NCBI GenBank assembly: GCA_963702895.1
Contig: OY969767.1
Span: 2,048,001 to 2,112,000, forward strand
DNA: 64,000 bases
Direction of reading: 5' to 3'
Source of the DNA: an uncultured Elusimicrobia bacterium
GTDB lineage: Bacteria; Elusimicrobiota; Elusimicrobia; 2-01-FULL-59-12
Made by a program: the position numbers and the translations under genes. Below the pieces are notes generated by a model. It made no database searches and was not told where the DNA came from. It worked only from the letters and a program-made list of their open reading frames with translations. Of this stretch, positions 1,707 to 29,000 are shown piece after piece (position 1 is the stretch's first letter; every line of letters starts with the position of its first letter).

Positions 1707-2870
1707 CTACTTCGTGTCGGGATGGGTGTCCGGTTCGTTGTGTTTGAGCGCGGCTTTTCGGCGGGCCATTTCTTCATTGGCGGTGCGCCGGAGTCCTGAT
1801 TCCAGCTGTTTGAGGGACGTCCGGAGTGCTTCTTCTTCTCTTCGAAAACGGGCCGAGAGCTCCGCCTCACGCCTGGCCGCTTGCTGTTCCAACTCAAGGC
1901 GCTTGACCTCCAGCGCCCCTTCTTTTGCTTGCAGATCGGCCAAATACTTTTCGCGAAGGGCGGTTTCCTTTTCCTGAAAGAGAGTCTCAAGGGCCTTTTC
2001 TTTTTCGGCGCGCGCTGCCTCGAGACCCTGCAGTTTTTGTTCATACATGGACTGAAGTTCCAGCCGTTCCTGATGGAGCGACCCCAGGCGGGACTGGTAT
2101 TGCGCCTGCCATGTTGATTCGGTTTGCGCGCGCGCCTGCTCCATCTGCTTCCAGGCTTCTTCCTCGCGCGCGCGCCAGAGCGCTTCCAGCTCCTGCCGTT
2201 TGCGATGGAATTCTGTTTGCCATGTTTCTTCTCGCGCCGCTCGCTCCACCTCGGTGCGCTGCAGAGCATCTTTCAATTCTGTCTTCTCTTTAGCCCACTG
2301 CGCTTTGAGCTCCCGAACCTCTCGATCTTTTTCACTTTGAGCGACCTCGAGGGCTTCTTGGAGGGTATGCCTGGACCGCTCTAAGATGGAGATGATCTCC
2401 GACTGGGCCCTGTGCTCAAAGGCGATTTTTTCCTGCTCAAGCCTCTGCACATCGCGCTCTCGGTCATCATGCATCTCTTTGACCCTGGCCAGTTCCGCTT
2501 CCCTGAGCTCGCGCGCCTTTTGCCACTCTTGCAGAAGGGTTTGCAGTTTTGTGATCTGGGCTTGCCACTTCTCATGCTCTTCGGCCGCGATCTCCTGTCG
2601 CAGTTGCGAGGAGAGCTCGGACTTATACTCCTGAAGAAGCGTCTGACTCTCTTGCCAACGGTCGTGGATCTCGGAGAGGCGCTGTTCCATCGTTTCGACG
2701 CGCGCCTTCCAGGCTTTTTCGCGCACGACCAGTTCCTGATTCTCCGATTTGAGGCTGGTCATCATGTCCTGAAGGTTTCGTAAAGACGCGACGGCTCCGC
2801 GCAGGGCGAGCCTTGCCGTATCAAGGTCAGACACGTCGTGAGAAGAGGAGGGCTCTTCGCTAGCGCTCAT
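1707..2870 (-). CDS. Long coiled-coil protein, function unknown
   Basis: 387-aa E/Q/K/R/L-rich heptad sequence. Its start overlaps the stop of the upstream gene. Confidence 0.75.
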   Translation of the reverse strand: MSASEEPSSSHDVSDLDTARLALRGAVASLRNLQDMMTSLKSENQELVVREKAWKARVETMEQRLSEIHDRWQESQTLLQEYKSELSSQLRQEIAAEEHEKWQAQITKLQTLLQEWQKARELREAELARVKEMHDDRERDVQRLEQEKIAFEHRAQSEIISILERSRHTLQEALEVAQSEKDREVRELKAQWAKEKTELKDALQRTEVERAAREETWQTEFHRKRQELEALWRAREEEAWKQMEQARAQTESTWQAQYQSRLGSLHQERLELQSMYEQKLQGLEAARAEKEKALETLFQEKETALREKYLADLQAKEGALEVKRLELEQQAARREAELSARFRREEEALRTSLKQLESGLRRTANEEMARRKAALKHNEPDTHPDTK

Positions 2871-4813
2871 TAGAAATTTGCGGCGGGACGCAGTTGCCGT
2901 TGGAGGCGGGCCTTCTGCTTCTGCATGACCTTCTCGAACCGATCAATTTCACGCAACACCTTGGAGAGGGGCTCCAGTGTCCTGCCCTGTGCGATGTTAT
3001 GCCATGTTTCGAGCTTGTATTCATCCATCCCAATCAGAATCTCTTCGACCATCGCCAAAAGGGCCGGTGCCAGACCTGGGATCCGCCGCAAGAGAACCGC
3101 GGAGAGACGTCCCACCTCTGAGCCGACCTCCTCCTGCTGGGCGGCGGGACGAGGAACGACCGCTAAATCATGGAAGAGTGCCGCCAAGGCCATGGCATAA
3201 CGGTGCTCGGGTGAGGCACCGGCTTCCTCAGCGCCGGTCAGGGCCATCAAGACCGTCCGCGCGACATGGGCCGGGAGATTCCCGGGCTCCACGGACCTCG
3301 CGAGGTAGCGCGCGAGCACATCATGGCCCTCGGGTAGAAACTCACTCGACTCCTGCAAAAGCGGGCTGACCGATTCCAACACCCCTTCCGGCGCCTGCAG
3401 GGCAGGCGAGTAAAGAAGTTTGGCGACTTCCACCCATCGCTCATAGAGGGAGGCCGCCTTTTGCGTCAAGGGATCGGCAGGGAGCTCCGGCGTGACCACT
3501 TCGAGCGCGACCGCGCTCGGAGGCGGTTCCGGGACGGAGGACGCCGTTGGTTGAGCCGATGGGACTTTCCACAAGCCATCGAGAGGCAAAGGTTCGGAGA
3601 CGATCTTCTTCGACTTTTTGGCGCGCCTCATCACGACACCCAGAAGGGCCACCGCCAGAACGCCTCCGGCCAGAACAGGCCAGCCCTCCACCCGCCGGGG
3701 CCATGTCGGCTTCTGGAACGGACGCGCTAAGGTCCATAAGGATTTGGCTTGTTTCTCTTCCTTCGCCAGCGCCTCTGCGCGGCGGCCGAGGTAGCCCATC
3801 CAGACTTTGGTCTCATTGATCTGACGATCATAAATCGAGAGTTTCTCGGTCAATCGGGTGGATCGGCGCCCTGTTTTTCCAAGCAATTCTTTAATTTGTT
3901 GACCCAACTGAGCGATATCGGTGTGCGTCGGGTAATTTTCAATCAAGAGGTTCCTGCGGGCTTTTAAGGACTCAATTTGGGCGATGAGCTGCGCGTTCGG
4001 CGTGGTCGGGACGGGGCCCATGAGGAGCGCCTTGCGTTCAAGAGCAAGCTGCTTCAAATTTGTCTCGAGGTTCTGTTGCTGTTTCTGGAACGTTACCACC
4101 TTCTTGTGGAGGGCGTCCTTTTCTCGGGCCAGAGAAGACGCGATGACCGCTTGGACGACCCTGCTTAAGCGCTCCATCAGCTTGCCTGGCATGGACGCCG
4201 TGCCACGGACGAGTATCTGAGGCGGCTCGCCAGGGACCTTTTCGAGGGTCGCCTCCGCCAATGGAATGGAAGGGTCCGCACGAAGTTGTCCCACTTCTTC
4301 TTCCAGATTCTTGGGGTCCCCCCCATAAACGAGGGTGGCTTCTGATTCAAACCTCAACCGTGGAAGGCGCAGATATTGAGGTTTCAAGAAGGAGTGGAAA
4401 TCGATCGATTTTTTGGCGGGGGCCTGGGCTTGCGTGCGGGCCAACTCCAGCTTCTGGTTCAGTGCCGTGTATTCCGCTTCCAGTTGCGGCAGTTTCTCGA
4501 GCGCCGTGCGCATGGTGGCAATTTGCTCATCCAGGATTTTGATGTCCGGGTGCCCGTTGGGATAATGGCGAAGGAGCTGGTTTTTTCGTCCTTCAAGATC
4601 GATCATACGACCCGCGAGAGATCCGCCGGGACGCAGCTGCTTAATACGAACGATAAATTCTTGCTTTTGAGCGGAAAGGCGCTCGACTTCAGGGCTCGTC
4701 GCGGCTCGTGCATGGGCTTCCTTAATAATAAATGGGGAGTAGCTGGGCCACCACCGGACCCCAAGAATTCCGACGATCACCACCAGGACAACGAAAATTA
4801 GGATTTTCTTCAT
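2870..4813 (-). CDS. Wzz/GumC (polysaccharide co-polymerase)-like membrane protein with C-terminal degenerate HD-like domain
   Basis: N-terminal TM, coiled coils with YPNGHPDI and YPTHTDI motifs, Pro-rich segment before a second TM (WPVLAGGVLAVALLGVVM), then a cytoplasmic H...LAALFHDL segment. SD AGGAGG upstream. Confidence 0.6.
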   Translation of the reverse strand: MKKILIFVVLVVIVGILGVRWWPSYSPFIIKEAHARAATSPEVERLSAQKQEFIVRIKQLRPGGSLAGRMIDLEGRKNQLLRHYPNGHPDIKILDEQIATMRTALEKLPQLEAEYTALNQKLELARTQAQAPAKKSIDFHSFLKPQYLRLPRLRFESEATLVYGGDPKNLEEEVGQLRADPSIPLAEATLEKVPGEPPQILVRGTASMPGKLMERLSRVVQAVIASSLAREKDALHKKVVTFQKQQQNLETNLKQLALERKALLMGPVPTTPNAQLIAQIESLKARRNLLIENYPTHTDIAQLGQQIKELLGKTGRRSTRLTEKLSIYDRQINETKVWMGYLGRRAEALAKEEKQAKSLWTLARPFQKPTWPRRVEGWPVLAGGVLAVALLGVVMRRAKKSKKIVSEPLPLDGLWKVPSAQPTASSVPEPPPSAVALEVVTPELPADPLTQKAASLYERWVEVAKLLYSPALQAPEGVLESVSPLLQESSEFLPEGHDVLARYLARSVEPGNLPAHVARTVLMALTGAEEAGASPEHRYAMALAALFHDLAVVPRPAAQQEEVGSEVGRLSAVLLRRIPGLAPALLAMVEEILIGMDEYKLETWHNIAQGRTLEPLSKVLREIDRFEKVMQKQKARLQRQLRPAANF

Positions 4814-4858: not shown

Positions 4859-7171
4859 TTAATTTGCACTCTGAAGCTCTTCATCAAAGGTGGCCTCAAA
4901 CTCCTGATAAGCCAGCCTGCAATCGAGATTGGCCTGCTGGCAGCTGGCGAGGATTTTCTTTAACAGCTTGATGCGTTCGGCGATCGTAGCGCCTGCAGCG
5001 ACCTTGCGGGAGTACTGCAACAACGCCTTTTCATAGCGAATTTGCGACTCGGAGCGCATTTCTTGGGCCTTTTGGGCGGTCGGCGGTTTTGGCGCCACCT
5101 CGGGCACCGTGACGACTGGTTTTGGCGCAGGCGCTGCCTTCGCAGGACCTGCGGTTCGGATAGGTTCTGGCGGCTCATGCTCATAGCGGATCGCTTTGTT
5201 CACAATCCGTTGGAGGGACGCGATTCCATCATTCATCGACATCCCCTGTGCGGGCAAGGACCGCTGGTAGTTCCAGGCCAGGTGCAGCCAAGCCATGTAA
5301 CGCAAGTCCCGCGCGTCTTGGAGGTTCCAGGGACGATTCACCAGGATGTTTTCCAGATACTTCTCCAGGGTGCGCATCAGATAATTCACGCGCTCAGGCT
5401 CTGAGGCTTGGCGCGATCGCAAGTGCGCGTAATAATTCTTTGTGTTCTGCAGTTCATCTTCCAGGTCCATAAACTCCGTGAGTTCCTTCTGAGAGCTCTC
5501 GAAGTAGCTCTTCCAAAGATCGAACTGGGCCTCAAAAGCACCGACACGATGCGCGGACGGCGCCATGAGCAGCGAAGAAACACGCACCAGGAGCTCCTCG
5601 ATGTTTTTCACTTGGGGCACGGGCGACACTCCCAGCGGTCGCGCAGCCGTCAGAGGCACCTGAAGATCTTCCAAAGTCACCGTGGGTGTCGTGGTTGTTG
5701 GGTCCTCCATGATCCCCTTCATCGCTTTGTCCGAAGGCGGCTCTATCTTGGGCGCTTCTTTTGCGAGATGCCCGAGCATCATCTCTGCAGTGACCTGTTC
5801 TTCGGAAGGCGTTCCCGCTCCGGCGCTTGGAGGAATGATGACGATGACGGCAGATCCCGGCTGAGCGGATTTTTGGGCTTGAGCAATCAGCTTCGAAACG
5901 TCTGACACGGATTGAGGCGCCGCGGCTTTTGCCCCTGATGAACCGCGTTGGGGCTGTCCCTGGATCAGCTGTTCCATCTCATTCAGTTCCTGGGCATAGG
6001 CCGAAGACGGCGTCTTGCGAGGTTTTTGCGTCACAGACTTTGGCGTGGCTTTCTTTGCGACAAGTAATTCACCAAGCACGACTGACTCTTCTTTCTTGGG
6101 CTCTTCTTTTTTGGTCTCTTTTTGCCTTGCTTTCAGGATGGGCTGGGCCGGCGCCTCGGGCACACCAAAGCGATAGCTCATCGAGAACCGATGTGTCCCG
6201 GAGGTATCGCCCAGCGTGATGCCGCCCAGATTAAAGACGAACGTATAGTCAAAACCGAGGGCCCCCATCTCATAGCCGCCTCCGAGCGCAAGCTGACGAT
6301 ACTGGCGACTTCCGGCGGCCAAAGACCCGCGGACCGCGACGCGGTCCCCGCCGATCAAACTCCACTTGCGTTCCGCGGCACCGGTCGCGATCGTGTCGCT
6401 CTGGTTGGAGAGTGTTTGCCGTCTTTGCAGGGCACCGGCAAAGCTCAGGTAGCGATTGCGGGCGTAGGAGATGGCCAGTCTTGTCGTGCGCGGGACAATT
6501 TCATGATCAGCGCTTGAGAGCGCGATATTGGGCTCATTGATGTCCTGGAGCGAGAGCGCCAGCGTCGTCTTATCCGTCCACCGGTACAGGGCGCCCAGGT
6601 CCGCGGAGTAGGCGGTGTTCGAGTGGCCGTTTTGCGTGAAGAAGTCGGGCGTGCCGGATTGAACGTTGCCGTTGTTGTCGACGATGATCTGGGGCACGCC
6701 AAAGGAGTGATAAAGCTGCTTGAGGGCCCCGCCAATGGCAATCTTGGACGTCAGCCACTCCCCGTAGCCTAAGGAGAGCGTGCGCTCCTTATAGAGGTCG
6801 TCGAGCCCGAACTGTTTCCAACTTACGGCCAGCGTCCCACCCCAGGACACGGGCTGGCCGTAAGCCAGATAGGTCTGTGATAAATTGGAGCCGTCGGAGA
6901 GGCCCGCGAAGAGTTTCGCGTACTCGGACGTGACTTCTTTCTGCCGGACGCGGGCCAAGGCCGCCGGGTTGTAGGCGAGAGACAGCACGTCATCGCCCAT
7001 CACCACATAGGTGTCACCCAGCGCGGTGCCGCGGGCGCCCGTCCCCTTATCCTCAAACGCCGCGTGGACGGGTACGGCAAACAGCGTAAATAGTGAATAG
7101 AAAATAGGAAGCGCAAGCGCTTGAACTATTGACCATTTACCATTCACGATGTTTGCCTTTGCTGTCATCAT
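4859..7171 (-). CDS. Outer-membrane beta-barrel (PorV/FadL/UPF0164-like) with long Pro-rich linker and C-terminal helical region
   Basis: Signal peptide ending VHA, then GARGTALG...DDVLSLAYNPAAL (PorV/FadL-like N-terminal motif), amphipathic strands ending THRFSMSYRFG, and a ~430-aa extension. Confidence 0.7.
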   Translation of the reverse strand: MMTAKANIVNGKWSIVQALALPIFYSLFTLFAVPVHAAFEDKGTGARGTALGDTYVVMGDDVLSLAYNPAALARVRQKEVTSEYAKLFAGLSDGSNLSQTYLAYGQPVSWGGTLAVSWKQFGLDDLYKERTLSLGYGEWLTSKIAIGGALKQLYHSFGVPQIIVDNNGNVQSGTPDFFTQNGHSNTAYSADLGALYRWTDKTTLALSLQDINEPNIALSSADHEIVPRTTRLAISYARNRYLSFAGALQRRQTLSNQSDTIATGAAERKWSLIGGDRVAVRGSLAAGSRQYRQLALGGGYEMGALGFDYTFVFNLGGITLGDTSGTHRFSMSYRFGVPEAPAQPILKARQKETKKEEPKKEESVVLGELLVAKKATPKSVTQKPRKTPSSAYAQELNEMEQLIQGQPQRGSSGAKAAAPQSVSDVSKLIAQAQKSAQPGSAVIVIIPPSAGAGTPSEEQVTAEMMLGHLAKEAPKIEPPSDKAMKGIMEDPTTTTPTVTLEDLQVPLTAARPLGVSPVPQVKNIEELLVRVSSLLMAPSAHRVGAFEAQFDLWKSYFESSQKELTEFMDLEDELQNTKNYYAHLRSRQASEPERVNYLMRTLEKYLENILVNRPWNLQDARDLRYMAWLHLAWNYQRSLPAQGMSMNDGIASLQRIVNKAIRYEHEPPEPIRTAGPAKAAPAPKPVVTVPEVAPKPPTAQKAQEMRSESQIRYEKALLQYSRKVAAGATIAERIKLLKKILASCQQANLDCRLAYQEFEATFDEELQSAN

Positions 7172-9111
7172 CGGGCGACGACCACGGTTCCCGTGGCACT
7201 CTCCTTTCCGGCCTGGATCTTGTAGAGGTAGACGCCGCTCGGCACGACAGCGCCGTTTCCGTCTCTTCCATCCCAGACCAGGGAGTTGGAAGTCGGCGAG
7301 AGACTGCTGAAGGTGATGTCTCGGACCACGGCACCGCGGATGTCGTAAATCGTTCCGGTCACGGGGTCACCCGACGGGTTGTCGAAGAACCAGAAGACGC
7401 GGTTGTTCTGCGACGGATCGTTGGGCGTGATCACGCGCGGGTAAGGCGAGTTCTGTGAGAGTTTGAAGACGGTTCCAATTTGGGTGGCGCGGACCTGGTA
7501 GATTCCGATGTTCCGAACGCTCACGGCGATCTGCTGGGCCGAGGTCAGGACAGGATCGCTCAGCCGGATGTAAGCGGCGCCGTTGTACCAGTAGACCGAG
7601 ACGATTTGAGCGATCGAACCCGGGCCAGGGTCAAGAAATTTCGTGCGGTAGTGGCCAGTTCCTAAAATTGCTCCAAGGCCCAGCTGGACCTGCATGTCGT
7701 TTCGCGAGAAGGCGAAGTTCGGCAACGGCCTGCCGGACTGAGCCAAATAGGCTTCAACGCGGTAGGACCGCAGGGTGACATCCACTTCGTCCTGGGCTCG
7801 GCGCACAATGACCAGCTCAACATCCTCGCCATAGCCGTTGAACCCAGCGTTCAGTTCATGAAGGAGCGCCGCAGGGACCACCACGCGCGTTGTCGGATCA
7901 TCGGCGGCCACGACAATGCGGTTCTCAAGGGTGTCCACATAATCAGAGGCCGCCGATGTGAAGCCGCCCACACCAACAGCAAAGACGCGGTAGTAATAGG
8001 TCTGTGCCCCCACCGCCTCGGAGTAGCTCAAGGTGTCGGCCCCTAAGGTCCCTACGAGCGTCGGAGTGGATTCAATCGCGTCGTACCGGTAGACCGAATA
8101 GTGGTCAAGAGTGATCGGCAGGTAATCTGTCGCGAGGGTGACGGAACTCCAGCTCACGGTAAAGAGACCCCCCGCATTGGAAGCGACAAGTCCATTGGGC
8201 CGCAAGGGTGTCCGGATGATCTGCAGACGTTCGGCAACGACTTCTGAAGAGGGCGGGCTCTCCCAGGCCGTGCCAGGATAGGTCGGCGCCCCTCGATCAA
8301 GGGCCGTGATGATGTAGTAGTAGGAGGTCCCTAGGACAACCGAGTTGTCGCTATAAGAGGTCCCCGTTGACGAACTGAGCAGAACGTAGCCGGTCCCGCT
8401 CTCTGTGGACCGATAAATTTGGTAGGCATCAAAATCAGGCCCTTTCTGGACCGTAGTGAGGTCGGTCCAGGCAAGGTCAATGGACGAGAGAGTGCCGGTC
8501 GCGCTGAGCCCGCTCGGCGTTCCAGGCACCAGATCAACAGGACTCGCTTGGGCAACCCCAGCGATATCGGACCAGAAATCGAGCGAGACGCCCACATCAT
8601 CGGCGGAACGGACGGCGATGTAATACGTGGCCCCAGGGAACAGTGCCAAGGTGTGGTCGGACCCGGTGCCGGGTGGCCCCAAGGTCCTTGTGACGGCATC
8701 CCCTGGAGACTCTCCGTAAAATCCTTGGGCTGTGAAACCGCCAGCGGTATTCCACCAGGCGGTCGTGCTCCCGCCAACGCTGGCCAGTGAAATCGTTTGG
8801 ATCCTGACTTGGTAGGCCTCAAGCGTACTCCCGGGGAATACGGTCGGCGCTGTCCAATCAAGGCGTAGTTGTCCTTCAACGGCCACAGGCGTGGTCGAAA
8901 GGTCAACAATCGTGGCTGGAGGAACTCCAGCAAACGGCCTGACGCTCAGAGAGGCGTCAACGAATGAAGCGGCATAAACCGGTCCGGGCGGGCCGAGTAA
9001 ACACAAAGCTCCCCCGACGAGCACCAGGTGCCGTATCCAACGCGTTACACGCGCGATGAAATTGTTCTCGCTCGTAAGTGCTCCTTTAACTTCCTTCCAT
9101 AACTCCTCCAC
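7168..9111 (-). CDS. Secreted fibronectin type III repeat protein with C-terminal FlgD-Ig / gliding-motility-type sorting domain
   Basis: FN3 motifs (LDWTAP, YQIYRS...YSD...YYYIITALD). The C-terminus reads PRVITPND...WDGRDGNGAVVPSGVYLYKI...GTVVVAR. Start position uncertain. Confidence 0.75.
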   Translation of the reverse strand: MEELWKEVKGALTSENNFIARVTRWIRHLVLVGGALCLLGPPGPVYAASFVDASLSVRPFAGVPPATIVDLSTTPVAVEGQLRLDWTAPTVFPGSTLEAYQVRIQTISLASVGGSTTAWWNTAGGFTAQGFYGESPGDAVTRTLGPPGTGSDHTLALFPGATYYIAVRSADDVGVSLDFWSDIAGVAQASPVDLVPGTPSGLSATGTLSSIDLAWTDLTTVQKGPDFDAYQIYRSTESGTGYVLLSSSTGTSYSDNSVVLGTSYYYIITALDRGAPTYPGTAWESPPSSEVVAERLQIIRTPLRPNGLVASNAGGLFTVSWSSVTLATDYLPITLDHYSVYRYDAIESTPTLVGTLGADTLSYSEAVGAQTYYYRVFAVGVGGFTSAASDYVDTLENRIVVAADDPTTRVVVPAALLHELNAGFNGYGEDVELVIVRRAQDEVDVTLRSYRVEAYLAQSGRPLPNFAFSRNDMQVQLGLGAILGTGHYRTKFLDPGPGSIAQIVSVYWYNGAAYIRLSDPVLTSAQQIAVSVRNIGIYQVRATQIGTVFKLSQNSPYPRVITPNDPSQNNRVFWFFDNPSGDPVTGTIYDIRGAVVRDITFSSLSPTSNSLVWDGRDGNGAVVPSGVYLYKIQAGKESATGTVVVAR

Positions 9112-9262: not shown

Positions 9263-9823
9263 TTACTGCGCCGTTCCGGTGAAACGTACTGTGATTTCCC
9301 GTGCGCTGTTGTCGGCGACACTCGTCGGCATATCCAGCCGGAACCACAGATCAACACTCGGCAATGAGCCGCCGGATGTTGTGACCACCGGACTACTTCC
9401 TCCCAACCCTCGCAGGGGGTTGGCTCCTGTTCCATCGAACAAGTGACTGGCCACGCTAAACGCACCACTGGCTGGACGAACGGCTGCCGTCGCCACGTAG
9501 AGCGCGTACGTATTCGCCGCATTGTTCGGTGAAGCGATCGTAGAGGCGAACCAGCCCGCAGGACTTGATTGCGTCTGGATTCGCTTATCGACCGTCACAT
9601 CCACTGAACCGTTATTCGACAAGCTCAGCGCAGAGGCCGTCACGGTTGTGACACCCACATCCAGCGACCCGAACGCATAAGTGGTCGGCGACAACGTCAG
9701 ATCCACCGTCGCGACAGGCGTGACTGTGATGGTGCCATCAACAGGGTTTGAGGCCCTTGCTTGACTGCTGGCCAGCGTTACGAAGACTCCGCATAGCGCA
9801 AGCCATTTGTGTGAATTACGCAT
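9263..9823 (-). CDS. Secreted pilin-like subunit, divergent paralogue (putative minor subunit)
   Basis: Signal peptide (ARA|S). The mature part aligns along its full length with the 188-aa tandem subunits (NPVDGTITVTPVATVDLTLSPTTYAFG...LWFRLDMP...REITVRFTG). Confidence 0.7.
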   Translation of the reverse strand: MRNSHKWLALCGVFVTLASSQARASNPVDGTITVTPVATVDLTLSPTTYAFGSLDVGVTTVTASALSLSNNGSVDVTVDKRIQTQSSPAGWFASTIASPNNAANTYALYVATAAVRPASGAFSVASHLFDGTGANPLRGLGGSSPVVTTSGGSLPSVDLWFRLDMPTSVADNSAREITVRFTGTAQ

Positions 9824-9891: not shown

Positions 9892-10458
9892 TTACAGTGC
9901 CGATCCAGTGAAGCGCACCGTGATTTCACGTGCGGTCTGCGCGCTGACTGCGCTCGGCATCGCCAGCTTGAACCACAGGCTCACGTTCGGCGTCGCTCCG
10001 CCTGAAGTCGTGATGGTGGGATCTCCACCGCCCAAGCCCTTCAAGCCGTTGGCTCCGGTCCCGTTGAACAGGTGGTCCGCGTCAACGAAGTCCCCTGTCG
10101 CAGGGCGTGCCGCCGCTGTCGCCACGTAGAGCGCGTACTTGTTCAGCGCTACTGCCGGCGAGCCGATCGTCGCGGCCGTCCAGCCCGCGGGACTTGACTC
10201 GGTCTGGATGTTCTTCTGGACGGTCACGTCCACACTGCCCGAGTTCGACAGCGTGATGGCTGTCGCCGCCACAGACGACGTATTGACGGTGAGCGGCCCG
10301 TAGGCGTAGGTGGTCGGTGACAAGGTCAAGTCCACCGTCGCCACGGGTGTCACCGTGATCGTGCCGTCTACGGGGTTGGCGGCTTGCGCCGTCCCCAGTC
10401 CCAACAACCCAATGCCCAACATCCCAAGCACAACCTTCCATCTTGTTCTGGTGTTCAT
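9892..10458 (-). CDS. Secreted pilin-like subunit, copy 1 (putative major subunit)
   Basis: 188 aa, signal peptide AQA|A, beta-rich T/V/A/G composition, SD AAGGAGG. Confidence 0.75.
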   Translation of the reverse strand: MNTRTRWKVVLGMLGIGLLGLGTAQAANPVDGTITVTPVATVDLTLSPTTYAYGPLTVNTSSVAATAITLSNSGSVDVTVQKNIQTESSPAGWTAATIGSPAVALNKYALYVATAAARPATGDFVDADHLFNGTGANGLKGLGGGDPTITTSGGATPNVSLWFKLAMPSAVSAQTAREITVRFTGSAL

Positions 10459-12852: not shown

Positions 12853-13416
12853 TTACAGTGCCGTTCCAGTGAAGCGCACCGTGATTTCGCGTGCCGTCTG
12901 CGCGCTGACTGCGCTCGGCATGTTCAGCTTGAACCACAGGCTCACGTTCGGCGTCGCTCCGCCTGAAGTCGTGATGGTGGGATCTCCACCGCCCAAGCCC
13001 TTCAAGCCGTTGGCTCCGGTCCCGTTGAACAGGTGGTCCGCGTCAACGAAGTCCCCTGTCGCAGGGCGTGCCGCCGCTGTCGCCACGTAGAGCGCGTACT
13101 TGTTCAGCGCTACCGCCGGCGAGCCGATCGTCGCGGCCGTCCAGCCCGCGGGACTTGACTCGGTCTGGATCCTCTTCGTGCAGGTCACGTCCACGGTCCC
13201 GGTATTGCTCAACGTGACCGCTGTTGCCGATACCGAAGACGCGCTCACGGCGAGCGGCCCAAAGGCGTAAGTGGTGGGTGCAAGCGTCAAGTCCACCGTC
13301 GCCACGGGTGTCACCGTGATCGTGCCGTCCACGGGGTTAGCGGCTTGCGCCGTCCCCAGTCCCAAAAACCCGAAGCCCAACACCCACGTCATGATTCTTT
13401 TCATGTTCGTATGCAT
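12853..13416 (-). CDS. Secreted pilin-like subunit, copy 5 (first in operon; different signal peptide and N-terminal patch)
   Basis: 187 aa. The C-terminal two-thirds are near-identical to copy 3; the segment around LAPTTYAFGPLAVSASSVSATAVTLSNTGT differs. Confidence 0.75.
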   Translation of the reverse strand: MHTNMKRIMTWVLGFGFLGLGTAQAANPVDGTITVTPVATVDLTLAPTTYAFGPLAVSASSVSATAVTLSNTGTVDVTCTKRIQTESSPAGWTAATIGSPAVALNKYALYVATAAARPATGDFVDADHLFNGTGANGLKGLGGGDPTITTSGGATPNVSLWFKLNMPSAVSAQTAREITVRFTGTAL

Positions 13417-13431: not shown

Positions 13432-14727
13432 TTACTTCGCCACGCTGATATAGACGCGGCTGTAGACTTCCACCGGAATATCCCGTCCCTGCAGGCCGCC
13501 CTGGATGACAAACATGAAGCGTTTCCCGCGTATGGCTGGGTCATCGGGAAGTTCCAGGGTGATGGAGGTGCTCTTGATACTGTCACCGGGGACTTTGAGG
13601 TCCGTGTGTTTGACTTTGATCCACTCCGGCTTTCCGTACTCGTACCCGGACGCCGCGGCCATTCCGCCTGGCGCTGGCACCGAGGCAACCTTGAAGTTCA
13701 AGGTTTGAGGGCTGCGATTGATGAGGCTGAGTCGAACCCCCATCTCGGAGAGGTCCACCTTCTTCCCTGGCACCATAAAGCCGGGGACATACTGAAGGTC
13801 CGGCTCAAGGGTAAAGTTGAGCATCTGGTAGATGCCCTGTTTCTGCAGGCGGCGAATTTCTTCGGGGCCCGCCGAGCCGACGCTAAAACGCAATCGGCTC
13901 GACAACGCAATCCCGAAGGACAACGCTGTGACCTGCCCAGGCGGTGGTTCCGGTGTGGTCGCTGTCAGATGGGCCTGGAAATGCCGTCCCACATACTCTT
14001 CACCCGGCGGGACTTGAAGAATGACATCCACGAGACCCTCTTCGCCGGCGGCCAGCTTGAGGCGGCCAGGGACCAATTTGATCCAGGACGGATCGACAAT
14101 CGCCTCATAACCAGGCTTGAGCTGCTCTTTGCTGGGGATTTCGACTTCCACCTGGAGTTCGACTTCGCCGTTGGAGCGGTTCTCCACACGGTAAGGCAGG
14201 TTCCGCATGGTCCGGAGGTTGTAGATTTTGCCCGGCTGGACATGCTCCATGATGACGTCGGCGAACTTGGTGCCCACGTTGTAGCCGGCTTCCGCTGGCG
14301 TCGCGGAAAAGCCCAACGCGCCTGCGAGCAGCACGGCGATGAGCCCTTTCCAGAAACGACCGGTGTCGGAAGGGTAATCACCGCCTCGTTCGGCAAGCGC
14401 AACGGCCTCGAGGGTCTTACGAATACCCCGGAAACGCGCCTGTCCATACCATGGCCGGAAGGGCGTGGTCTTGGGAGCTGGCGTGGAGGCCGCTTTGACC
14501 ACATCCAAGGCGTACATCTCTTCCGCTGGAGTGGCCAACTGGTAGCGGTGAGGCTTCTCTTCGATGAGAAGCCCACCGGAGGTGAGGTTTTCCAGGATCG
14601 CGACGCAAGAGTCGAAGGGGACCCCCTGTTCGCGGCTGATGTCATGAGCGGAGCGCCATGACGTGCTCTTGTCCTTGAAGGCGCGCAGGCACATCAAGGC
14701 ATACTGAATGCTTTGCTGATTATTCAC
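13432..14727 (-). CDS. Rrf2-like winged-HTH fused via internal signal/TM segment to two Ig-fold chaperone-like domains
   Basis: N-term YALMCL...SAHDISREQGVP...ILENLTSGGLL...YQLATPAEEMYALDVV resembles Rrf2. It is followed by RFWKGLIAVLLAGALGFSATPAEA and a domain aligning with 15621..16097. GTG start with SD AAGGAG. Confidence 0.65.
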   Translation of the reverse strand: MNNQQSIQYALMCLRAFKDKSTSWRSAHDISREQGVPFDSCVAILENLTSGGLLIEEKPHRYQLATPAEEMYALDVVKAASTPAPKTTPFRPWYGQARFRGIRKTLEAVALAERGGDYPSDTGRFWKGLIAVLLAGALGFSATPAEAGYNVGTKFADVIMEHVQPGKIYNLRTMRNLPYRVENRSNGEVELQVEVEIPSKEQLKPGYEAIVDPSWIKLVPGRLKLAAGEEGLVDVILQVPPGEEYVGRHFQAHLTATTPEPPPGQVTALSFGIALSSRLRFSVGSAGPEEIRRLQKQGIYQMLNFTLEPDLQYVPGFMVPGKKVDLSEMGVRLSLINRSPQTLNFKVASVPAPGGMAAASGYEYGKPEWIKVKHTDLKVPGDSIKSTSITLELPDDPAIRGKRFMFVIQGGLQGRDIPVEVYSRVYISVAK

Positions 14728-14929: not shown

Positions 14930-15538
14930 TTAAGCGGCTCTCTTGGCTTTTGTCTTTCCGCCTAAAACCATCCGGACCTGAATCAAGGAACGACACAGTT
15001 CCTTGAGTGTGATGCCCTGATCTTGGGCCATTTTTTGAAGCGTCCGGTGCGCTTCATCTTCCGTGTAGCCTTGCTGATCCATCAAAATCCCTTTGGCTTT
15101 TTCGAGAAGTTTGCGTGTTTCCAAAGTTTCGGAAAGCGTCTTCATTTCTTCTTTGAGGGATTTGATCGTTAGGAAACGGTGCCAGGCGCCCTCGATCATC
15201 GGAACGACTTGGGAGGTTTCGATGGGCTTGGCCATATAGGCGCTAGCGCCCAAATCCAAGGCTTGACGGCCGATCTTCGCTGATCCGTCTGCCGTCAAGA
15301 TGACCACAGCGGTCGTTTGAAGGGGCACGATTTGCGCAAGCGCCTCGAGGCCACTCGACTGTGGCATGTGAACATCCATCACGATAACGTCTGGCTTTTT
15401 TTCTTTCACAAGCGCCACAGCTTCCAGGCCGTTGTTGGCGATCCCGAGGATTTGATATTGGGATTGGCAGACGAGTTGCAGAACATTCAGAATGTCCAGT
15501 TGATCATCAGCAAACGCTACAGTTTTAACTCGTTCCAT
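14930..15538 (-). CDS. REC-ANTAR response regulator (AmiR/NasT/EutV type RNA antiterminator)
   Basis: Receiver motifs ADD, MDVHMP, LTA, AKP; coiled coil; ANTAR motif RKLLEKAKGILM...TEDEAHRTLQKMAQDQ. Start moved to the ATG at 15538. Confidence 0.93.
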   Translation of the reverse strand: MERVKTVAFADDQLDILNVLQLVCQSQYQILGIANNGLEAVALVKEKKPDVIVMDVHMPQSSGLEALAQIVPLQTTAVVILTADGSAKIGRQALDLGASAYMAKPIETSQVVPMIEGAWHRFLTIKSLKEEMKTLSETLETRKLLEKAKGILMDQQGYTEDEAHRTLQKMAQDQGITLKELCRSLIQVRMVLGGKTKAKRAA

Positions 15539-15545
15539 CGGCTCA

Positions 15546-15574
15546 AGTCTATGGTGAATCCGTAGTGATTTCAA
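15546..15574 (-). promoter_or_regulatory. Putative promoter TTGAAA-N17-TAGACT with AT-rich upstream element; likely leaderless mRNA
   Basis: The -10 box ends 7 nt before the ATG at 15538. No SD. A/T tract at 15575-15620. Confidence 0.6.
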
Positions 15575-15620: not shown

Positions 15621-16097
15621 CTATTTCTCTATGGTAAAGCGCAGTCTCGAAAGTAGTCCGGGACTCACGGACACAGCTGCATCGCTCATCGGTGCTCCTC
15701 GAGTCCAGATCATGATTTGGTAGGGTTGCTCATGACGTTTCACAGAACGTGGGACGATGAGGGTGATCTGGAAGATGCCTTCCCCCCGCGCCGGGAGAAT
15801 TAATTCGTCAGGATCCAGGCGTACCCAAGCCGTCTCAGAAATGGGGATCGCCCCATCCTTCAGCTGGGCCTGGGTTGGAACGAGAGCTTGGACTTTGACA
15901 CGGATGGGCGTGTTTCCTAAGTTTTTGAGCACCAAGCCTTTGCCGCTAGGCCCGCTCACGACATAAGGCTGCCCGCTTGGAACTCCCCGAACGAAGACAT
16001 CACTGAAAGACGTGGATAGACCTTCGGCACACTCACCAAGCGGAGAAAGCGCCCCTAGCATGACACCCAAGATCAAAAAGCAACGTATTCTTATCAT
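15621..16097 (-). CDS. Small secreted Ig-fold chaperone-like protein (PapD-N/DUF916-like, inferred)
   Basis: The ATG overlaps the adhesin stop (ATGA). Signal peptide present. LVLKNLGNTPIRV...WVRLDPDELILP...SRLRFTI is paralogous to domain 1 of 13432..14727. Confidence 0.6.
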   Translation of the reverse strand: MIRIRCFLILGVMLGALSPLGECAEGLSTSFSDVFVRGVPSGQPYVVSGPSGKGLVLKNLGNTPIRVKVQALVPTQAQLKDGAIPISETAWVRLDPDELILPARGEGIFQITLIVPRSVKRHEQPYQIMIWTRGAPMSDAAVSVSPGLLSRLRFTIEK

Positions 16098-19000
16098 GGC
16101 GCGGTCGCCGTCACCGTCAGAATCATTTGCTGCTGATTGGTCGTGCTCGTGGTCGGAGGCGTATCCAGGCGAAGCCAAAGATTGCGGCTAGCGCTCACAG
16201 GAACAGACACGCCTGTCTGGTTGGCTCCGTAAATGCCCGGCGTCGATGCGGTCGGAGTGCTGATGATGATGTCGGTCGAAGAAAAGATATCGCTCAGAGG
16301 CTGGACCGAATTGAACTTACCGAACATGGCAAAGGTGTTGCGCGACGTGGGGAGAGCAGTCCCTACCCCCCACACCGTTGTCGGGCCTGAGGTTGTAATC
16401 GAAAGGGAAAATGTCTCTGCGACATTGCCCGTATTGGTGACGGCGATGGCAGATCCTGAGACGACGGTGCTGGCGACAGGAACGGAACCAAAGTCATAAC
16501 TCGAGGGGGACAAGCTCAGCGACAGGATAACGAAGGTCCAATTGGTGTTATTTTCAGAATCGATGGAATCGGGCCCCGCGGCGATCACGACACCCGCGCT
16601 CGCGCTGGAATAAGCGACATCGACATACGATACCGTATTTGTGGACGTGTTGTTCAAATACCACATTTGGTCCGGAGGCGTCGGCCGGATCCACACGGTG
16701 TTGCCACTCGACCCCCTCAGGACGAGATTGGCAATCGTAAACGTGGAATGGGCGTTGAAGTAGACCGTCGTCGCGCTGGCCAGGCCGGCGCCATCGACGG
16801 TAAGTTTGGTGGCGGTGAAGCTCGAAGCAAACGTCACGCCGCCGCTGGAGGTGTTCGAATCAATTAAGACCCAGAAGGGCAGGCCGGCATTCGTGATGGT
16901 TTGGGCCGAGGAGCCCGTCAGGGCCACGGTGCTCCGGTTGACCGTAAAGGCCCCGCTGTTGAGCTGCATGTCGCCGCCCAAATCCACCCGGTAGGAATTG
17001 GCGTTGGTGTTCATGGTCCCACCGCTAATGATGAAATCACCGTCAATCGCGATATCGGAACCCAGCGTCCACACCATACTTCCCCCCAAGGTGAGGTTCC
17101 CCACAATGGGAGAGGTAAAGGTCGTGCAGGTCTTGGCGCCGCTGCCGCTAAAGGTCAGGTTGTAGTATTGGGCGTTCTTGCAGGTTTGCGCGCCCGCCAA
17201 GGCGTAGTTCACCGTGTTGGAACTCGACACAAAGTCGACGGTGGTGACGGCCATGGCGTTGGTCGTGGCGCCGCTGGCGTTTAGGACAGAATCCAACCCT
17301 TGCGTCCAAGACCCGCCGCCGGTCAAGGTGCTCGAGGCGTTGACCGTGCCGTTGTTCGTGACTGACCCTGTCACGGTGAAGACGCCCGGGGTGGTGAGCG
17401 TCCCGTTGTTGGTCAAGGTCATGCCGGCTGCTACGGTGAGCGTCGTGATGCTCATGGTACCGCTGAGCGCTTGATTGTTGGTGTTGAAGGTGGCCGTACC
17501 AGTGATGGCGATGCTTCCGGAAGTCCGGGTGAGGCCGCCTCGAAACACGATCCCGGTGCTGGCGCCGCTGAGCGTTCCGCCGCTCACCGTGACCAGTCCC
17601 GCGAAGAGTTTTGAGCCTGTGTCGCTGGTGAGCGATACCGTTCCCCCTGAGAGCGTCGAAGCCCCTGTCACCCAGAACTGAAACGCGCCGGTGGTGAGCG
17701 TGCCGCCGGAAGCAAGAATCCCGCCATTGACCGTTACGGATGAGCCCAGCGTCCAGGCGGCGGTCCCGCCCATTTCGATATTCCCTAAGATCGGAGACGT
17801 AAAGGTGGTGCAAGTCTTGACGCCGCTGCCTCCGAAGGCGAGGTTGTAGTACTGGATATTCCTGCAGGTCTGGATGCCGGCGAAATTGTAGCGGACGGTG
17901 TTGCCACTGGCATTCGCTGTCAGCGTCGTGATTCCGGGCGTGCCGGTGAAGTTGAGGTTGAGCGTGCCGCCGGCGGCGTTGGTGAACCCACCTGTTCCGT
18001 TGAGCGCGGTGTTGACCGTAATCGTGCCTTGGTTGGTGAGCGTGGTTCCCGTAATCGTCAAGGTGGCCAGGTTGAGACTGGCGGTGTTGGTGTAGGCGGT
18101 GGTGAACGTGGGGCTGCCAAAGTCTGTGGCGCCCGCTGTGCCGCTGATGGTGCCCCCACCCACCTTGGCAAAGGCCGGCAGGAACGTCGTGGCGGCAGCG
18201 CCGGAGGTCGTACCGTTCATCACCAGATTTCCGTTGATATTGACCGTTTCAGCCGCTGTCACATTGAAATCACCATCCACGGTGAGTGTGTCGTTAAAGG
18301 TCTTGGAGCCGGTCGTGCTGGGAATCTGAAGCGTCCCGCCAGCATCCACTTGAACATCCACAAATATGGAAGTGCCTGTATCCGTGTTGAGTATTCCACC
18401 GTTTCCGATCGTCACGGTCTTATTAAACGTCTTGTTGCCCGTCGCGTTGGTGAGCGTCAAGGTCCCGTAGACATCGACGCTGCCGTTGGCGGTAAAGTCG
18501 AATCCGGCCGTGGTCAGTGTGCTGCCGCTGCGAACCGTAAGACTGGAGATCGTCACAGCCGCCGTGGGGACAGGCATGAAGGTGGCCGTGGACACGATCA
18601 ACACGGAATCCTGGGACGTGGGATACCCCTCATCCCAGTTGGACCAGTTCCACCAGTTGGTGTCGACAGCTCCCCACCAGGTCCGGATTTGTCCGGTGAG
18701 AAAACTCCAAAAGAAATTGTTCCCTGAATTGACGCTCGTGCCGTCATTGGCCACGATCGCTCTTCCCGAACGAGCGTCGGAATCCCGCACGTCCACATAC
18801 ACCCCGGAACTCGTCCCCGTATTGTTCAAATACCAGTTGGTGTCATCGATCGTAGACCTCAGCCAGATCTTTTTGCCGCTGGCACCTACCAGAGACAGGG
18901 TCGTGATGGTAAAAGTTGAATTGGCATTGAAGTAGACCGTCGTTTCGTTCGCCAAGTCGGCGCGGTTGATCATGAGCTTGGTGGCGGTGAAGCTCGAAGC

Positions 19001-27398: not shown

Positions 27399-28751
27399 TT
27401 ATGAAGCGATGCCGCCGACTACGACACCCTTGGGAATGCGCAGCGTAGGGAGTCCATCGGACACGGGGGCGCCCTGGCCATCTTTGCCGCAGGTTCCTAC
27501 AGACCAGCCCATATCGGAACCCACGAGATCAATGGCTTTGAGCACATCCGGGCCGTTGCCGAGGAGATTGGCGGATCGGATGAGCGGACCCGCCTTCCCG
27601 TCTTTGATCAAAAATCCTTCTTCCACTTCAAAAACAAAATCGCCGGTCGCGGGCTCCACCTGCCCGCCGCCCATCTTGGTCACGAGAAGCCCATTCTCGA
27701 CGGAGCGTAAGATCATGGCGGGATCATCTGGCCCTGAGGCGACAAAGGTATTGGCCATGCGCGGAATGGGCCGATGACGGTACGACTCGCGCCTTCCGTG
27801 ACCGTTGGAAGCAACGCCGTCCTTTTTTGATGTTTGCCTGTCGTAAATGTAGGTCTTAAGCACCCCGTGATCGACGAGAACAGAGCGTTGCGAGGGAGTT
27901 CCTTCGTCATCAAAAGCGTAAAAGCCGCGCTGGCCAGGCATCGTGGGATCTTCGAGGACGCTCACCTTTTCGTTTCCGATCACCTTTCCGACGGCGCCCC
28001 TATACATCGGCGACACACCTTTTTGCACAGCATCGGCCTCAAGGGGATGGCCAATCGCTTCATGAATGAGGGTCCCCCCCGCTTCGGCCGCGATGATGAT
28101 CGGCATCTCACCCAAGGGCGCGTCGGGTGCGGTTAAACGATCGACCGCCCGCTGTGCCACTTTTTGGGAGAGTCGGGCAACATCCACGCGACTCAAGAAC
28201 TCAAAACCTGACGAGCCGCTCACCGCGTCATAGGCGGTTTGGAGGAGGCCGTCCTTTTCGGCAACGACCGAAATGGAGAAGGTGAGAACAGCCCGCCATT
28301 CTTCCGTCGATGATCCTTCTGAAGTCCAAATCCGGACGTGTTTGTCAGTCTCCCCGTAAGAAATGGAAATCTGGCGGACCCGGGGGAGCTTGGCCGCCTG
28401 GTAGCACTGCTGCAACAACTTTACTTTTTCGTCAACCGCAACCTGGGAGGCCTCGCGGAGGACTTGGGGTTGATAGGACCTGGGGGCCATGAGGAATTTG
28501 CTCCTGAGAAGCTCTTTCGCCCATCGGTCAAGATCCTCGGAGGAGGGGTGGTCGACGCTGGCGTAACGACATTCTTCACCCTGGAGAGCGCGAAGTCCCG
28601 CCCCACATTCTTGGTTCTGGGTCAGGCGCTCGATCTTGCCTTCTTCCCAACGAAGCGTGAAGGATCGCGCGTCTTCCCAGTAGAGGTCGGCGTAATCGCC
28701 AAATCGCAGTATGGACGAAAGGTCTGATGGCATCTGACGGATGGCAGTCAT
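27399..28751 (-). CDS. tldD: TldD/PmbA family metalloprotease (TldD)
   Basis: HEAIGHPLEAD, GHGRRESY...PRMANT, GTCGKDGQ. Start moved to the ATG at 28751 because the longer ORF runs through a REP element. Confidence 0.92.
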   Translation of the reverse strand: MTAIRQMPSDLSSILRFGDYADLYWEDARSFTLRWEEGKIERLTQNQECGAGLRALQGEECRYASVDHPSSEDLDRWAKELLRSKFLMAPRSYQPQVLREASQVAVDEKVKLLQQCYQAAKLPRVRQISISYGETDKHVRIWTSEGSSTEEWRAVLTFSISVVAEKDGLLQTAYDAVSGSSGFEFLSRVDVARLSQKVAQRAVDRLTAPDAPLGEMPIIIAAEAGGTLIHEAIGHPLEADAVQKGVSPMYRGAVGKVIGNEKVSVLEDPTMPGQRGFYAFDDEGTPSQRSVLVDHGVLKTYIYDRQTSKKDGVASNGHGRRESYRHRPIPRMANTFVASGPDDPAMILRSVENGLLVTKMGGGQVEPATGDFVFEVEEGFLIKDGKAGPLIRSANLLGNGPDVLKAIDLVGSDMGWSVGTCGKDGQGAPVSDGLPTLRIPKGVVVGGIAS

Positions 28752-28804
28752 AGAACGGGCATGATTGTAACTTATCAGAGAGAATCGCCTGCGGGCATCA
28801 AGCG

Positions 28805-28916
28805 CCCTCACCCTCGGCGCTCGCTGCGCTCGGCCTCTCCCTCTCCCGCGTGCACGCGGGAGAGGTCGCCAAGACTGCCGGCGACTCGCCGGACGTCTGG
28901 CGAGGTGGGGTGAGGG
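28805..28916. repeat. REP-like palindromic element (CCCTCACCC...GGGGTGAGGG family)
   Basis: Terminal inverted repeat plus internal ctctcccgcgtgcacgcgggagag hairpin. Confidence 0.7.
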
Positions 28917-29000
28917 CACCCCCGTTTAGCTGAGATTTCTACGACCCGTTGCCAGGCTTGTTGTTCTTGAGAATAGAGATGGAAACGCCGGTTTCTGAGA

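Follow-up and report, generated by a model that had tools for sequence, protein, structure and literature searches.

We describe here a gene cassette in a stretch of 64,000 nucleotides (hereafter the window) from the genome of an uncultured Elusimicrobia bacterium (assembly GCA_963702895.1, contig OY969767.1, positions 2,048,001 to 2,112,000). The cassette lies on the minus strand and encodes a giant secreted protein that ends in a pilin-like domain, six tandem copies of a small secreted subunit, a protein with FN3 domains, an outer-membrane barrel, and proteins with one and two immunoglobulin-like (Ig) domains (Table 1). As judged from the sequences, three protein classes are united in this one conserved cassette: one predicted only to accept a donor strand, one predicted both to donate and to accept, and one predicted only to donate. 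It is likely, in our assessment, that the locus encodes a fibre joined by donor-strand exchange and made of these three kinds of building block.

The final 144 codons and the stop of the open reading frame (ORF) of the giant, which is 3,738 amino acids long, occupy positions 16094-16528. A preliminary description of the window, made from the letters alone, had proposed that this region is homologous to the six subunits and lacks their N-terminal extension, and both proposals are borne out by our comparisons. BLASTP of the last 155 amino acids of the giant against the subunit encoded at 9892-10458 gave E 1e-8, with 23% identity over 146 amino acids (subunit residues 42-187). The profile alignment that the same description had suggested was run with hhalign, five C-terminal domains against 31 subunits, and gave a probability of 99.6% and E 7.8e-24 over 142 columns (subunit residues 39-187); the C-terminal-domain profile consisted of the giant and four other proteins ending in the same domain, and the subunit side was drawn from 73 homologues. 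The peptide strings originally quoted are present in both the giant and the subunit. Both alignments begin past the subunit extension, at subunit residue 39 to 42. The residues that precede the domain in the giant (...SENNTNWTF) match the end of a module found three more times upstream (...SGNNYNWYF, ...SGNNFFWSF), and since this last repeat module ends just two residues (VI) before the first core strand, the extension has no counterpart in the giant. The giant is also, as had been stated, far above the size of classical tip adhesins, being more than ten times as long as the 279-residue FimH chains in the Foldseek listing.

The six tandem subunit genes, running from 12853-13416 down to 9263-9823 on the minus strand, encode secreted proteins of 186-188 amino acids, of which about 160 remain in the mature form. 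Each would combine an N-terminal extension, the proposed donor strand, with a pilin-like beta-sandwich core, the proposed acceptor. The segment NPVDGTITVTPV had been reported as invariant across all six genes, which is correct; the whole extension ANPVDGTITVTPVAT is in fact identical in all of them, and only the residue preceding it varies. No other block of the subunit family is as well conserved as the extension: across 31 aligned sequences T35, T37 and P38 never vary and D31 and I34 hardly do, and the ranking is the same with 54 sequences. Polar and hydrophobic residues alternate in it across the length of one strand. The donor strands of Fim and Pap pili show an alternating hydrophobic pattern that is one strand long.

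Four of the subunit genes are nearly identical and lie 754 bp apart (starts at 10458, 11212, 11966 and 12720), with mosaic differences among them (VTVQKN/VTCTKR; KLAMP/KLNMP), which suggests a recent tandem amplification with gene conversion. Tandem Repeats Finder, run with a period of up to 500, reported nothing, the period of the array being 754 bp, and a scan for promoters and terminators did no better than shuffles. A search for sequencing runs listed three DNA runs with small shares and no RNA run.

The third class is represented by the FN3 protein of 647 amino acids, which carries an extension-like strand and no pilin core. Its C-terminal domain is of the kind found in type IX secretion systems (T9SS), scoring 27.1 bits with TIGR04183 (cut-off 23) and 34.9 bits with FlgD_ig (cut-off 27). 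CHU_C, the type B signal of the T9SS, reaches 17.9 bits in the protein of the window, below the cut-off of 27. We compared the window with ten loci from other genomes (L001-L010; L004 ends after the subunit genes), and CHU_C was over its cut-off in three of the four orthologues of the FN3 protein that were scanned (L003, L005, L006). By hhalign the N-terminus of the FN3 protein aligns to the signal peptide and extension of the subunits, a short match with a pairwise E of 0.011. When the strand was expressed as a pattern, written after the protein had been seen, and searched among the 22,192 six-frame ORFs of the genome, it retrieved the six subunits and the FN3 protein and no others. This protein has orthologues in nine other loci, all of those that reach far enough, and in each of them a short alternating strand lies behind the signal peptide and ahead of the first FN3 domain.

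The strand of this putative base protein tracks the strand of the local subunit. In the window DGTITVTPVATV goes with DASLSVRPFAGV; in L005 the subunit has DTFQITFTP and the base protein DSFSITFTP, and in L006 DTCVMTVTP goes with DSIQMTCRP. Over seven divergent loci the summed own-locus similarity between base and subunit strands was 145, against a permutation mean of 99.9 (standard deviation 15.6). This score was reached in 10 of 5,040 permutations with 9-mers, in 26 with 7-mers and in 12 with 11-mers.

The gene that follows the FN3 protein encodes the barrel (4859-7171), which matches NF033709 with E 1.7e-12 (47.6 bits, cut-off 90) and TIGR03519 with E 9e-4 (18.7 bits, cut-off 90.55). By the curated score it falls outside the PorV/PorQ/PorP family, to which it is related. 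Two of the three orthologues of the barrel that were scanned, those of L002 and L003, end in LysM.

The composition of the cassette is conserved. All 11 loci contain the two-Ig protein, and all 10 that reach far enough contain the FN3 protein with the barrel behind it. Eight of the 11 also have a large protein with the pilin-like domain at its end; none was observed in L001 and L010, where contig ends truncate the locus, or in L004. Several loci (L003, L006, L007, L009) have a single subunit gene. A profile of the pilin domain matched 66 of 301 sampled genomes of the phylum, in 43 of 98 genera, with matching ORFs of up to 5,915 amino acids, and in these 301 genomes small matches often lie within a few kb of large ones. 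The relatives found in genome collections all belong to Elusimicrobiota. In the genome of the bacterium itself a six-frame search gave seven pilin-domain matches, which are the giant and the six subunits; an hmmsearch with default filters had missed the domain of the giant, presumably through the composition filter. L008 (2248-9210) holds two tandem large genes that both end in the pilin-like domain (1,474 and 830 amino acids) and may be alternative tips.

The acceptor-only domain recurs as a general C-terminal module. A phmmer search with the domain of the giant against 1.84 billion representatives returned 621 proteins at E <= 1e-3, counted at the 50% clustering level, and 174 at E <= 1e-10. 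For ten representatives the members of their clusters supplied no useful names or taxa. Among the best 150 of the 621 the domain was located in 149, and it ends within 8 amino acids of the C-terminus in 145 of these; 104 proteins of this set carry more than 100 amino acids ahead of the domain, which is C-terminal in 102 of them. The large proteins that carry it are otherwise unrelated, with payloads that include VCBS/FG-GAP, SBBP and FN3 repeats, and an FN3 domain usually runs straight into the first core strand. The small forms consist of a signal peptide and an alternating strand ahead of the core. Among the best 150, 28 short entries have an apparent N-terminus of their own and at least 24 amino acids before the core, and 19 of them show an alternating hydrophobic stretch directly ahead of it; by what is a crude classification, the other nine divide into eight apparent fragments of large proteins and one whose stretch is slightly displaced. 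Two entries, P0111 and P0164, pass from the signal peptide straight into the pilin-like core, with neither extension nor payload, and may be minimal acceptor-only caps. The domain is repeated within a single chain in P0142 (10 stretches in 1,630 amino acids), P0104 (three) and P0105 and P0185 (two each), which does not fit a simple tip model.

Structure prediction with AlphaFold 2 (AF2) gave a model of the subunit encoded at 9892-10458 with a predicted local distance difference test (pLDDT) of 94.8 and a predicted TM-score (pTM) of 0.87, and a model of the C-terminal domain of the giant with a pLDDT of 77.3 and a pTM of 0.71. Seven strands and one short helix follow in the same order in both models. 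When the models were compared with the PDB by Foldseek, donor-strand fibres took the top rows for both: the TasA fibre 8aur came first, and TLP-1a/b, archaeal bundling pili, cannulae and the 0406 thread were also there. Fim, Pap, Csu and CFA/I pilins were likewise among the top rows, with E above 0.05. The match to 8aur_A is weak (Foldseek E 2.3e-3, TM-score 0.45; VIA Z 6.7 over 136 residues). By VIA, TLP-1b reached Z 7.5 (141 residues), cannulae Z 6.9 (130 residues), FimA and Csu Z 6.8, pilins as a whole Z 5.8-6.8, and archaeal donor-strand fibres Z 6.2-6.9 over 128-131 aligned residues. These predicted fold neighbours are consistent with a pilin-like sandwich but prove nothing.

Neither the subunit nor the C-terminal domain was assigned to a family by Pfam or NCBIfam, and a profile search of the PDB gave no match at E <= 10; for the proteins that were searched, the ESM Atlas returned only unnamed Elusimicrobiota clusters. 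The three-class architecture known from other fibres, with an acceptor-only tip, a donor-plus-acceptor pilin and a donor-only base, is present at the level of sequence, and the giant has the form of a tip protein whose C-terminal pilin domain is without its own donor strand. The known families themselves were looked for by their profiles. In the bacterium's own genome, which is 98% complete, there was no match to the usher (PF00577), for which the E. coli control was positive, and none to PapD_N (PF00345). With no usher and no PapD homologue in the genome, membership of the chaperone-usher pili was rejected; the two-Ig proteins gave sub-threshold matches of the ASH and MSP type, in one of ten members each. 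Membership of the WxL family by sequence was rejected as well, PF13731 being found in 0 of 54 subunits at E <= 1, and neither the C-terminal domain nor the subunit matched it at E <= 0.1. A WxL cluster in the ESM Atlas, at 0.84, is a lead only. DUF916 (PF06030) matched one of ten two-Ig proteins at E 0.027, and an ESM Atlas cluster at 0.86 has PF06030 in 22% of its members. TasA family membership by sequence was rejected too, since Peptidase_M73 (PF12389) matched just one of 54 subunits, with E 0.11.

Components of the T9SS were sought in the same genome. A single ORF of 1,813 amino acids (C1:1187754-1190987) has four collinear sub-threshold matches to SprA, the best with 63 bits against a cut-off of 200. 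PorU matched the genome only via the C-terminal-domain end of the model, and no sortase body was found. Nine barrels of the PorV family are over the cut-off, and at least 19 ORFs carry a T9SS-type C-terminal domain. At least 11 large ORFs of 655-1,653 amino acids, each ending in such a domain, lie on one strand at C1:2185315-2224423, outside the window.

In the assembly that we propose, the giant would receive the N-terminal strand of a subunit, each subunit that of the next, and the last subunit that of the base protein, every strand being inserted into the preceding core. The giant has a core and no extension and can thus only accept, so it would be restricted to one end of the chain; the FN3 protein has a strand and no core, can only donate, and would be restricted to the opposite end. 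We propose the FN3 protein as the terminator of the fibre and its anchor in the outer membrane, where its C-terminal domain and the neighbouring barrel would hold it, and we propose the barrel as the docking partner of that domain. Proteins with type B C-terminal domains have been described to associate with PorP-like proteins for anchorage at the surface (PMC9143113). The T9SS-type domain on the base and the adjacent PorV/PorP-like barrel thus make it most likely that the donor-only end is proximal to the cell and the giant distal. The giant is accordingly placed as a putative distal cap, or payload, from the anchoring features at the opposite end. For chaperones that would keep the cores competent for assembly, the two-Ig and one-Ig proteins are the strongest candidates. 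The donor-strand reading, already offered in the preliminary description, gains indirect, comparative support from the extension being the best-conserved part of the subunits, from the wide occurrence of the acceptor-only module at the C-terminus of unrelated large proteins, from the presence of a donor-only protein in the cassette and from the co-variation of the strands.

A domain shared between large and small proteins could have another meaning. It might be a sorting or surface-attachment domain that is read by the machinery of the cassette, the small proteins being its secreted paralogues and no polymer being formed. Sorting domains do stand at the extreme C-terminus of many large proteins, as this domain does; choice-of-anchor D and HYDIN/VesB Ig families are matched weakly, T9SS-type C-terminal domains and PorV-like barrels abound in the genome, and the fold matches are not significant. 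However, it would be left unexplained why conservation in the small forms is highest in the extension, why a co-varying copy of it is found on an unrelated FN3 protein, and why the genome has a single large bearer of the domain, beside the subunit genes, where tens of scattered ones would be expected, and we regard a sorting domain as unlikely. Whether strand exchange would produce a long pilus is a separate matter. The dedicated caps at both ends, the loci with one subunit gene (L003, L006, L007, L009) and the fact that no machinery for extrusion of a long fibre was found in the genome would suit a short tether, in which one or a few adaptor subunits join the giant to an anchored base. Six subunit genes, four of them nearly identical, suggest a high demand for subunits, and subunits that both accept and donate set no limit in their sequence to the length of the chain, so that a short tether also appears improbable to us.

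The N-terminal segment itself could be a tag recognised by the two-Ig protein or by an export step, never being inserted as a strand. It directly follows the signal peptide in both protein classes and is unpaired in the monomer model, as a tag might be. The giant would need the same export step, yet it has no tag, and the alternating hydrophobic pattern over the length of one strand resembles the Elr donor strands as these are presented in a preprint on the Elr/WxL pilus (10.64898/2026.10.17.759780). That the strand co-varies with the core-bearing subunit of its own locus is in keeping with a shared groove, though a shared chaperone would account for it as well; on balance we consider a tag very unlikely. 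Even less credence is given to a fibre of reversed polarity, with the giant as the cell-proximal base, perhaps embedded in a surface layer, and the FN3 protein as the distal tip. The sole anchoring-type signal of the giant is its cleavable signal peptide, whereas the FN3 protein has the T9SS-type C-terminal domain and is followed by the PorV/PorP-like barrel, LysM-ended in two of the three orthologues scanned.

The donor-strand fibre that we favor should nevertheless be viewed with some caution, since a number of results weigh against it. In the Foldseek comparison with the PDB neither model had a match at E <= 1e-3 (best E 2.3e-3 and 9.0e-3), and in the wide VIA comparison Z did not exceed 8.1, a range rated typical of common arrangements, with complete PapD-like, ASH and MSP Ig domains at the top. 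Four of the five models of the C-terminal domain had pLDDT values of only 47-62. The co-variation test was made on seven loci of our own choice with registers set by landmarks, the own locus was the best match for only three to five of the seven base proteins, and L009 scored low. No route across the outer membrane was identified in the genome, there being no usher, no PorU and only an SprA-like ORF far below the cut-off. A Pfam scan of the payload of the giant found no family over its cut-off except a summed Big_15 signal and no recognisable binding family. The giant had previously been called an adhesin whose C-terminal domain is a subunit homologue; the homology and the missing extension stand, and the word adhesin is unsupported because the passenger has no recognisable binding family. 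In the AF2 model of the subunit monomer the extension forms no paired strand, which could be held against a donor strand as well; we count this as neutral, the pilins of the Elr preprint being described there in the same way.

Table 1. Genes and features of the cassette in the window (positions are those of the window)
Feature	Positions	Strand	Remarks
Two co-oriented genes, 647-aa coiled-coil membrane protein and 387-aa coiled-coil protein	1707..4813	minus	Syntenic in L001; membership of the system uncertain
Outer-membrane barrel of the PorV/PorQ/PorP kind, 770 aa	4859..7171	minus	Barrel is the N-terminal ~340 aa, followed by a long C-terminal extension
Donor-only protein, 647 aa	7168..9111	minus	Signal peptide, extension-like strand, FN3 domains, T9SS-type C-terminal domain; no pilin core
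Extension-like strand of the donor-only protein, ASFVDASLSVRPFAGV	8923..8970	minus	Immediately follows the predicted signal peptide
Subunit gene 6, 186 aa	9263..9823	minus	Most divergent copy, 63% identity to subunit 5
Subunit gene 5, 188 aa	9892..10458	minus	Copy used for the AF2 model
N-terminal extension of subunit 5, ANPVDGTITVTPVAT, mature residues 1-15	10336..10380	minus	Proposed donor strand
Subunit gene 4, 188 aa	10646..11212	minus	
Subunit gene 3, 188 aa	11400..11966	minus	
Subunit gene 2, 188 aa	12154..12720	minus	
Subunit gene 1, 187 aa	12853..13416	minus	Signal peptide, N-terminal extension, pilin-like core
Two-Ig-domain periplasmic protein, 431 aa	13432..14727	minus	Adjoins the subunit genes in every locus examined
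Response regulator with ANTAR output domain	14930..15574	minus	Pfam Response_reg 6.3e-22, ANTAR 4.5e-20
Small secreted one-Ig-domain protein, ~158 aa	15621..16097	minus	ATG at 16097; paralogous to the two-Ig protein's first periplasmic domain
Acceptor-only pilin-like C-terminal domain of the giant protein	16094..16528	minus	Subunit homologue without N-terminal extension (BLASTP, hhalign, AF2, domain boundary)
Giant secreted protein, 3,738 aa	16094..27310	minus	ORF and translation; Sec-type signal peptide, T/G/S/N-rich repeat modules, C-terminal pilin-like domain

Between the giant and the subunits lie the genes for the two Ig proteins (Table 1). The two-Ig protein has no significant match by sequence in Pfam or the PDB, and its nearest clusters in the ESM Atlas are all hypothetical proteins of Elusimicrobiota. 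BLASTP relates the one-Ig protein to it (13432-14727) with E 6e-16, and in the window, L002, L006 and L009 the one-Ig gene comes next after the large gene. The two-Ig protein is a candidate chaperone of the subunits and its one-Ig paralogue a candidate chaperone of the C-terminal domain of the giant. The TGA of the giant overlaps the ATG of the one-Ig gene (ATGA, 16094-16097), and L002 has the same overlap of four nucleotides (one-Ig start 1184, end of the large ORF 1187); this shared arrangement suggests translational coupling of the two genes. An Rrf2-like winged helix-turn-helix domain (E 2.8e-4, below the cut-off) and a membrane segment stand at the N-terminus of the two-Ig protein of the window and of that of L002; the two-Ig proteins of L003-L010 have a signal peptide only. 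The form with the winged helix-turn-helix domain may be a fusion of chaperone and regulator that reports the state of assembly.

A response regulator with an ANTAR (antitermination) output domain stands inside the cassette in two genomes, that of the window and that of L002 (1726-2388), and is likely to be the regulator of the cassette. L002 has a coiled-coil protein of more than 2,000 amino acids at the position of the two coiled-coil genes of the window. In L004 an ORF between the two-Ig gene and the subunit genes (2763-3620) resembles a lytic transglycosylase, by eye only. Upstream of the giant, a metallopeptidase of the TldD/PmbA family and a histidine kinase with a GAF domain are encoded on the minus strand of the window (27399-30548).

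If our interpretation is true, a diderm phylum without a cultured model for its surface structures would be added to the settings of donor-strand exchange, with new sequence families for the pilin, the chaperone candidate and the base. Strand-exchange fibres would be linked to anchoring parts of the T9SS type, and the bacteria would have a general means of displaying giant surface proteins. Hundreds of proteins now named hypothetical (621 representatives at 50% clustering) would receive an annotation, and the gene set is small enough to be tested by heterologous reconstitution. We lean, with some reserve, towards regarding the Elusimicrobiota system as an unrecognised class of usher-less diderm pilus, in which an acceptor-only domain would plug payloads of up to about 5,900 amino acids onto the fibre and the base would be fastened through a T9SS-type domain and a PorP/PorV-like barrel. 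The tip, pilin and base logic of chaperone-usher and WxL pili would then have been invented independently in this class, or else the class would be their ancient relative, beyond detection by sequence. In the literature that was searched we found no paper that links donor strands to Elusimicrobia or to PorV and, among the matches listed, none on pili or strand complementation that contains Elusimicrobiota.

Donor-strand exchange is known for the chaperone-usher pili of Proteobacteria, matrix fibres of the TasA type, several archaeal filaments and the WxL pili of Bacillota, the last of these from a preprint of October 2026. In the two-domain tip adhesins FimH and PapG, a pilin domain without a donor strand is completed by the N-terminal extension of the next subunit. 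The likeness of the present system to these pili lies in a payload followed by a C-terminal pilin domain that lacks a donor strand, in the extensions of the subunits and in a basal terminator. It differs from them in that the genome has neither usher nor PapD_N, in that no sequence relation to known pilins was found, and in that the base protein here has a donor strand only, whereas PapH and FimI are complete pilins.

Archaeal fibres (bundling pili, Sulfolobus threads, cannulae and Tafi) resemble the proposed fibre in having small beta-sandwich subunits and strand donation, with assembly that is chaperone-free or little understood. They belong to another domain of life and show no sequence relation, and no comparable tip or base proteins are described in the accounts that we compared. 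To our knowledge no cargo of the T9SS has a donor strand. With type B cargo of that system the base protein has in common a C-terminal domain of the CHU_C/Por_Secre_tail type and an adjacent PorV/PorP-like barrel, which matches the reported pairing of cargo with PorP-like barrels (PMC9143113). The T9SS is, in the accounts compared, described as a system of Bacteroidota (FCB group), and here SprA gave only a distant match and PorU no body. In the TasA/TapA system of Bacillus subtilis the fibre is joined by an N-terminal strand (PMC10151520, PMC9674648), and the TasA fibre 8aur was the top Foldseek row for both of our models. TapA, an accessory protein, donates its N-terminus to TasA and does not itself polymerise (PMC10151520). 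The differences are that no acceptor-only giant cap is known for TasA fibres and that the host is monoderm.

In its logic the system comes closest to the Elr/WxL pilus of Enterococcus faecalis, for which the preprint describes ElrD as pilin, ElrA as tip, ElrB as base and ElrE as chaperone (10.64898/2026.10.17.759780). The beta-sandwich of the ElrD pilins is reported to be incomplete, and their N-terminus to provide a donor strand that is unpaired in the monomer; the ElrA tip combines a variable payload at its N-terminus with a C-terminal acceptor domain that lacks a donor strand, and ElrB, the base, carries a donor strand and an LPxTG motif and no acceptor domain (10.64898/2026.10.17.759780). 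The three-part scheme and the modular payloads of the tip would thus be common to both systems, as would a dedicated Ig-like chaperone, which is anchored in the membrane in the Elr system as the two-Ig candidate of the window is. In its screen of 4,698 genera the preprint gives the Elr system as present in Bacillota only (10.64898/2026.10.17.759780); its supplements may hold matches beyond these. The Elusimicrobiota host, in contrast, is diderm, and in place of LPxTG and sortase its base has a T9SS-type C-terminal domain beside a PorV/PorP-like barrel. As predicted here, then, the Elusimicrobiota system fails the sequence tests of the known families and shares with them the logic of the donor strand, and it is set apart from them by the envelope of its host and by the manner of its anchoring.

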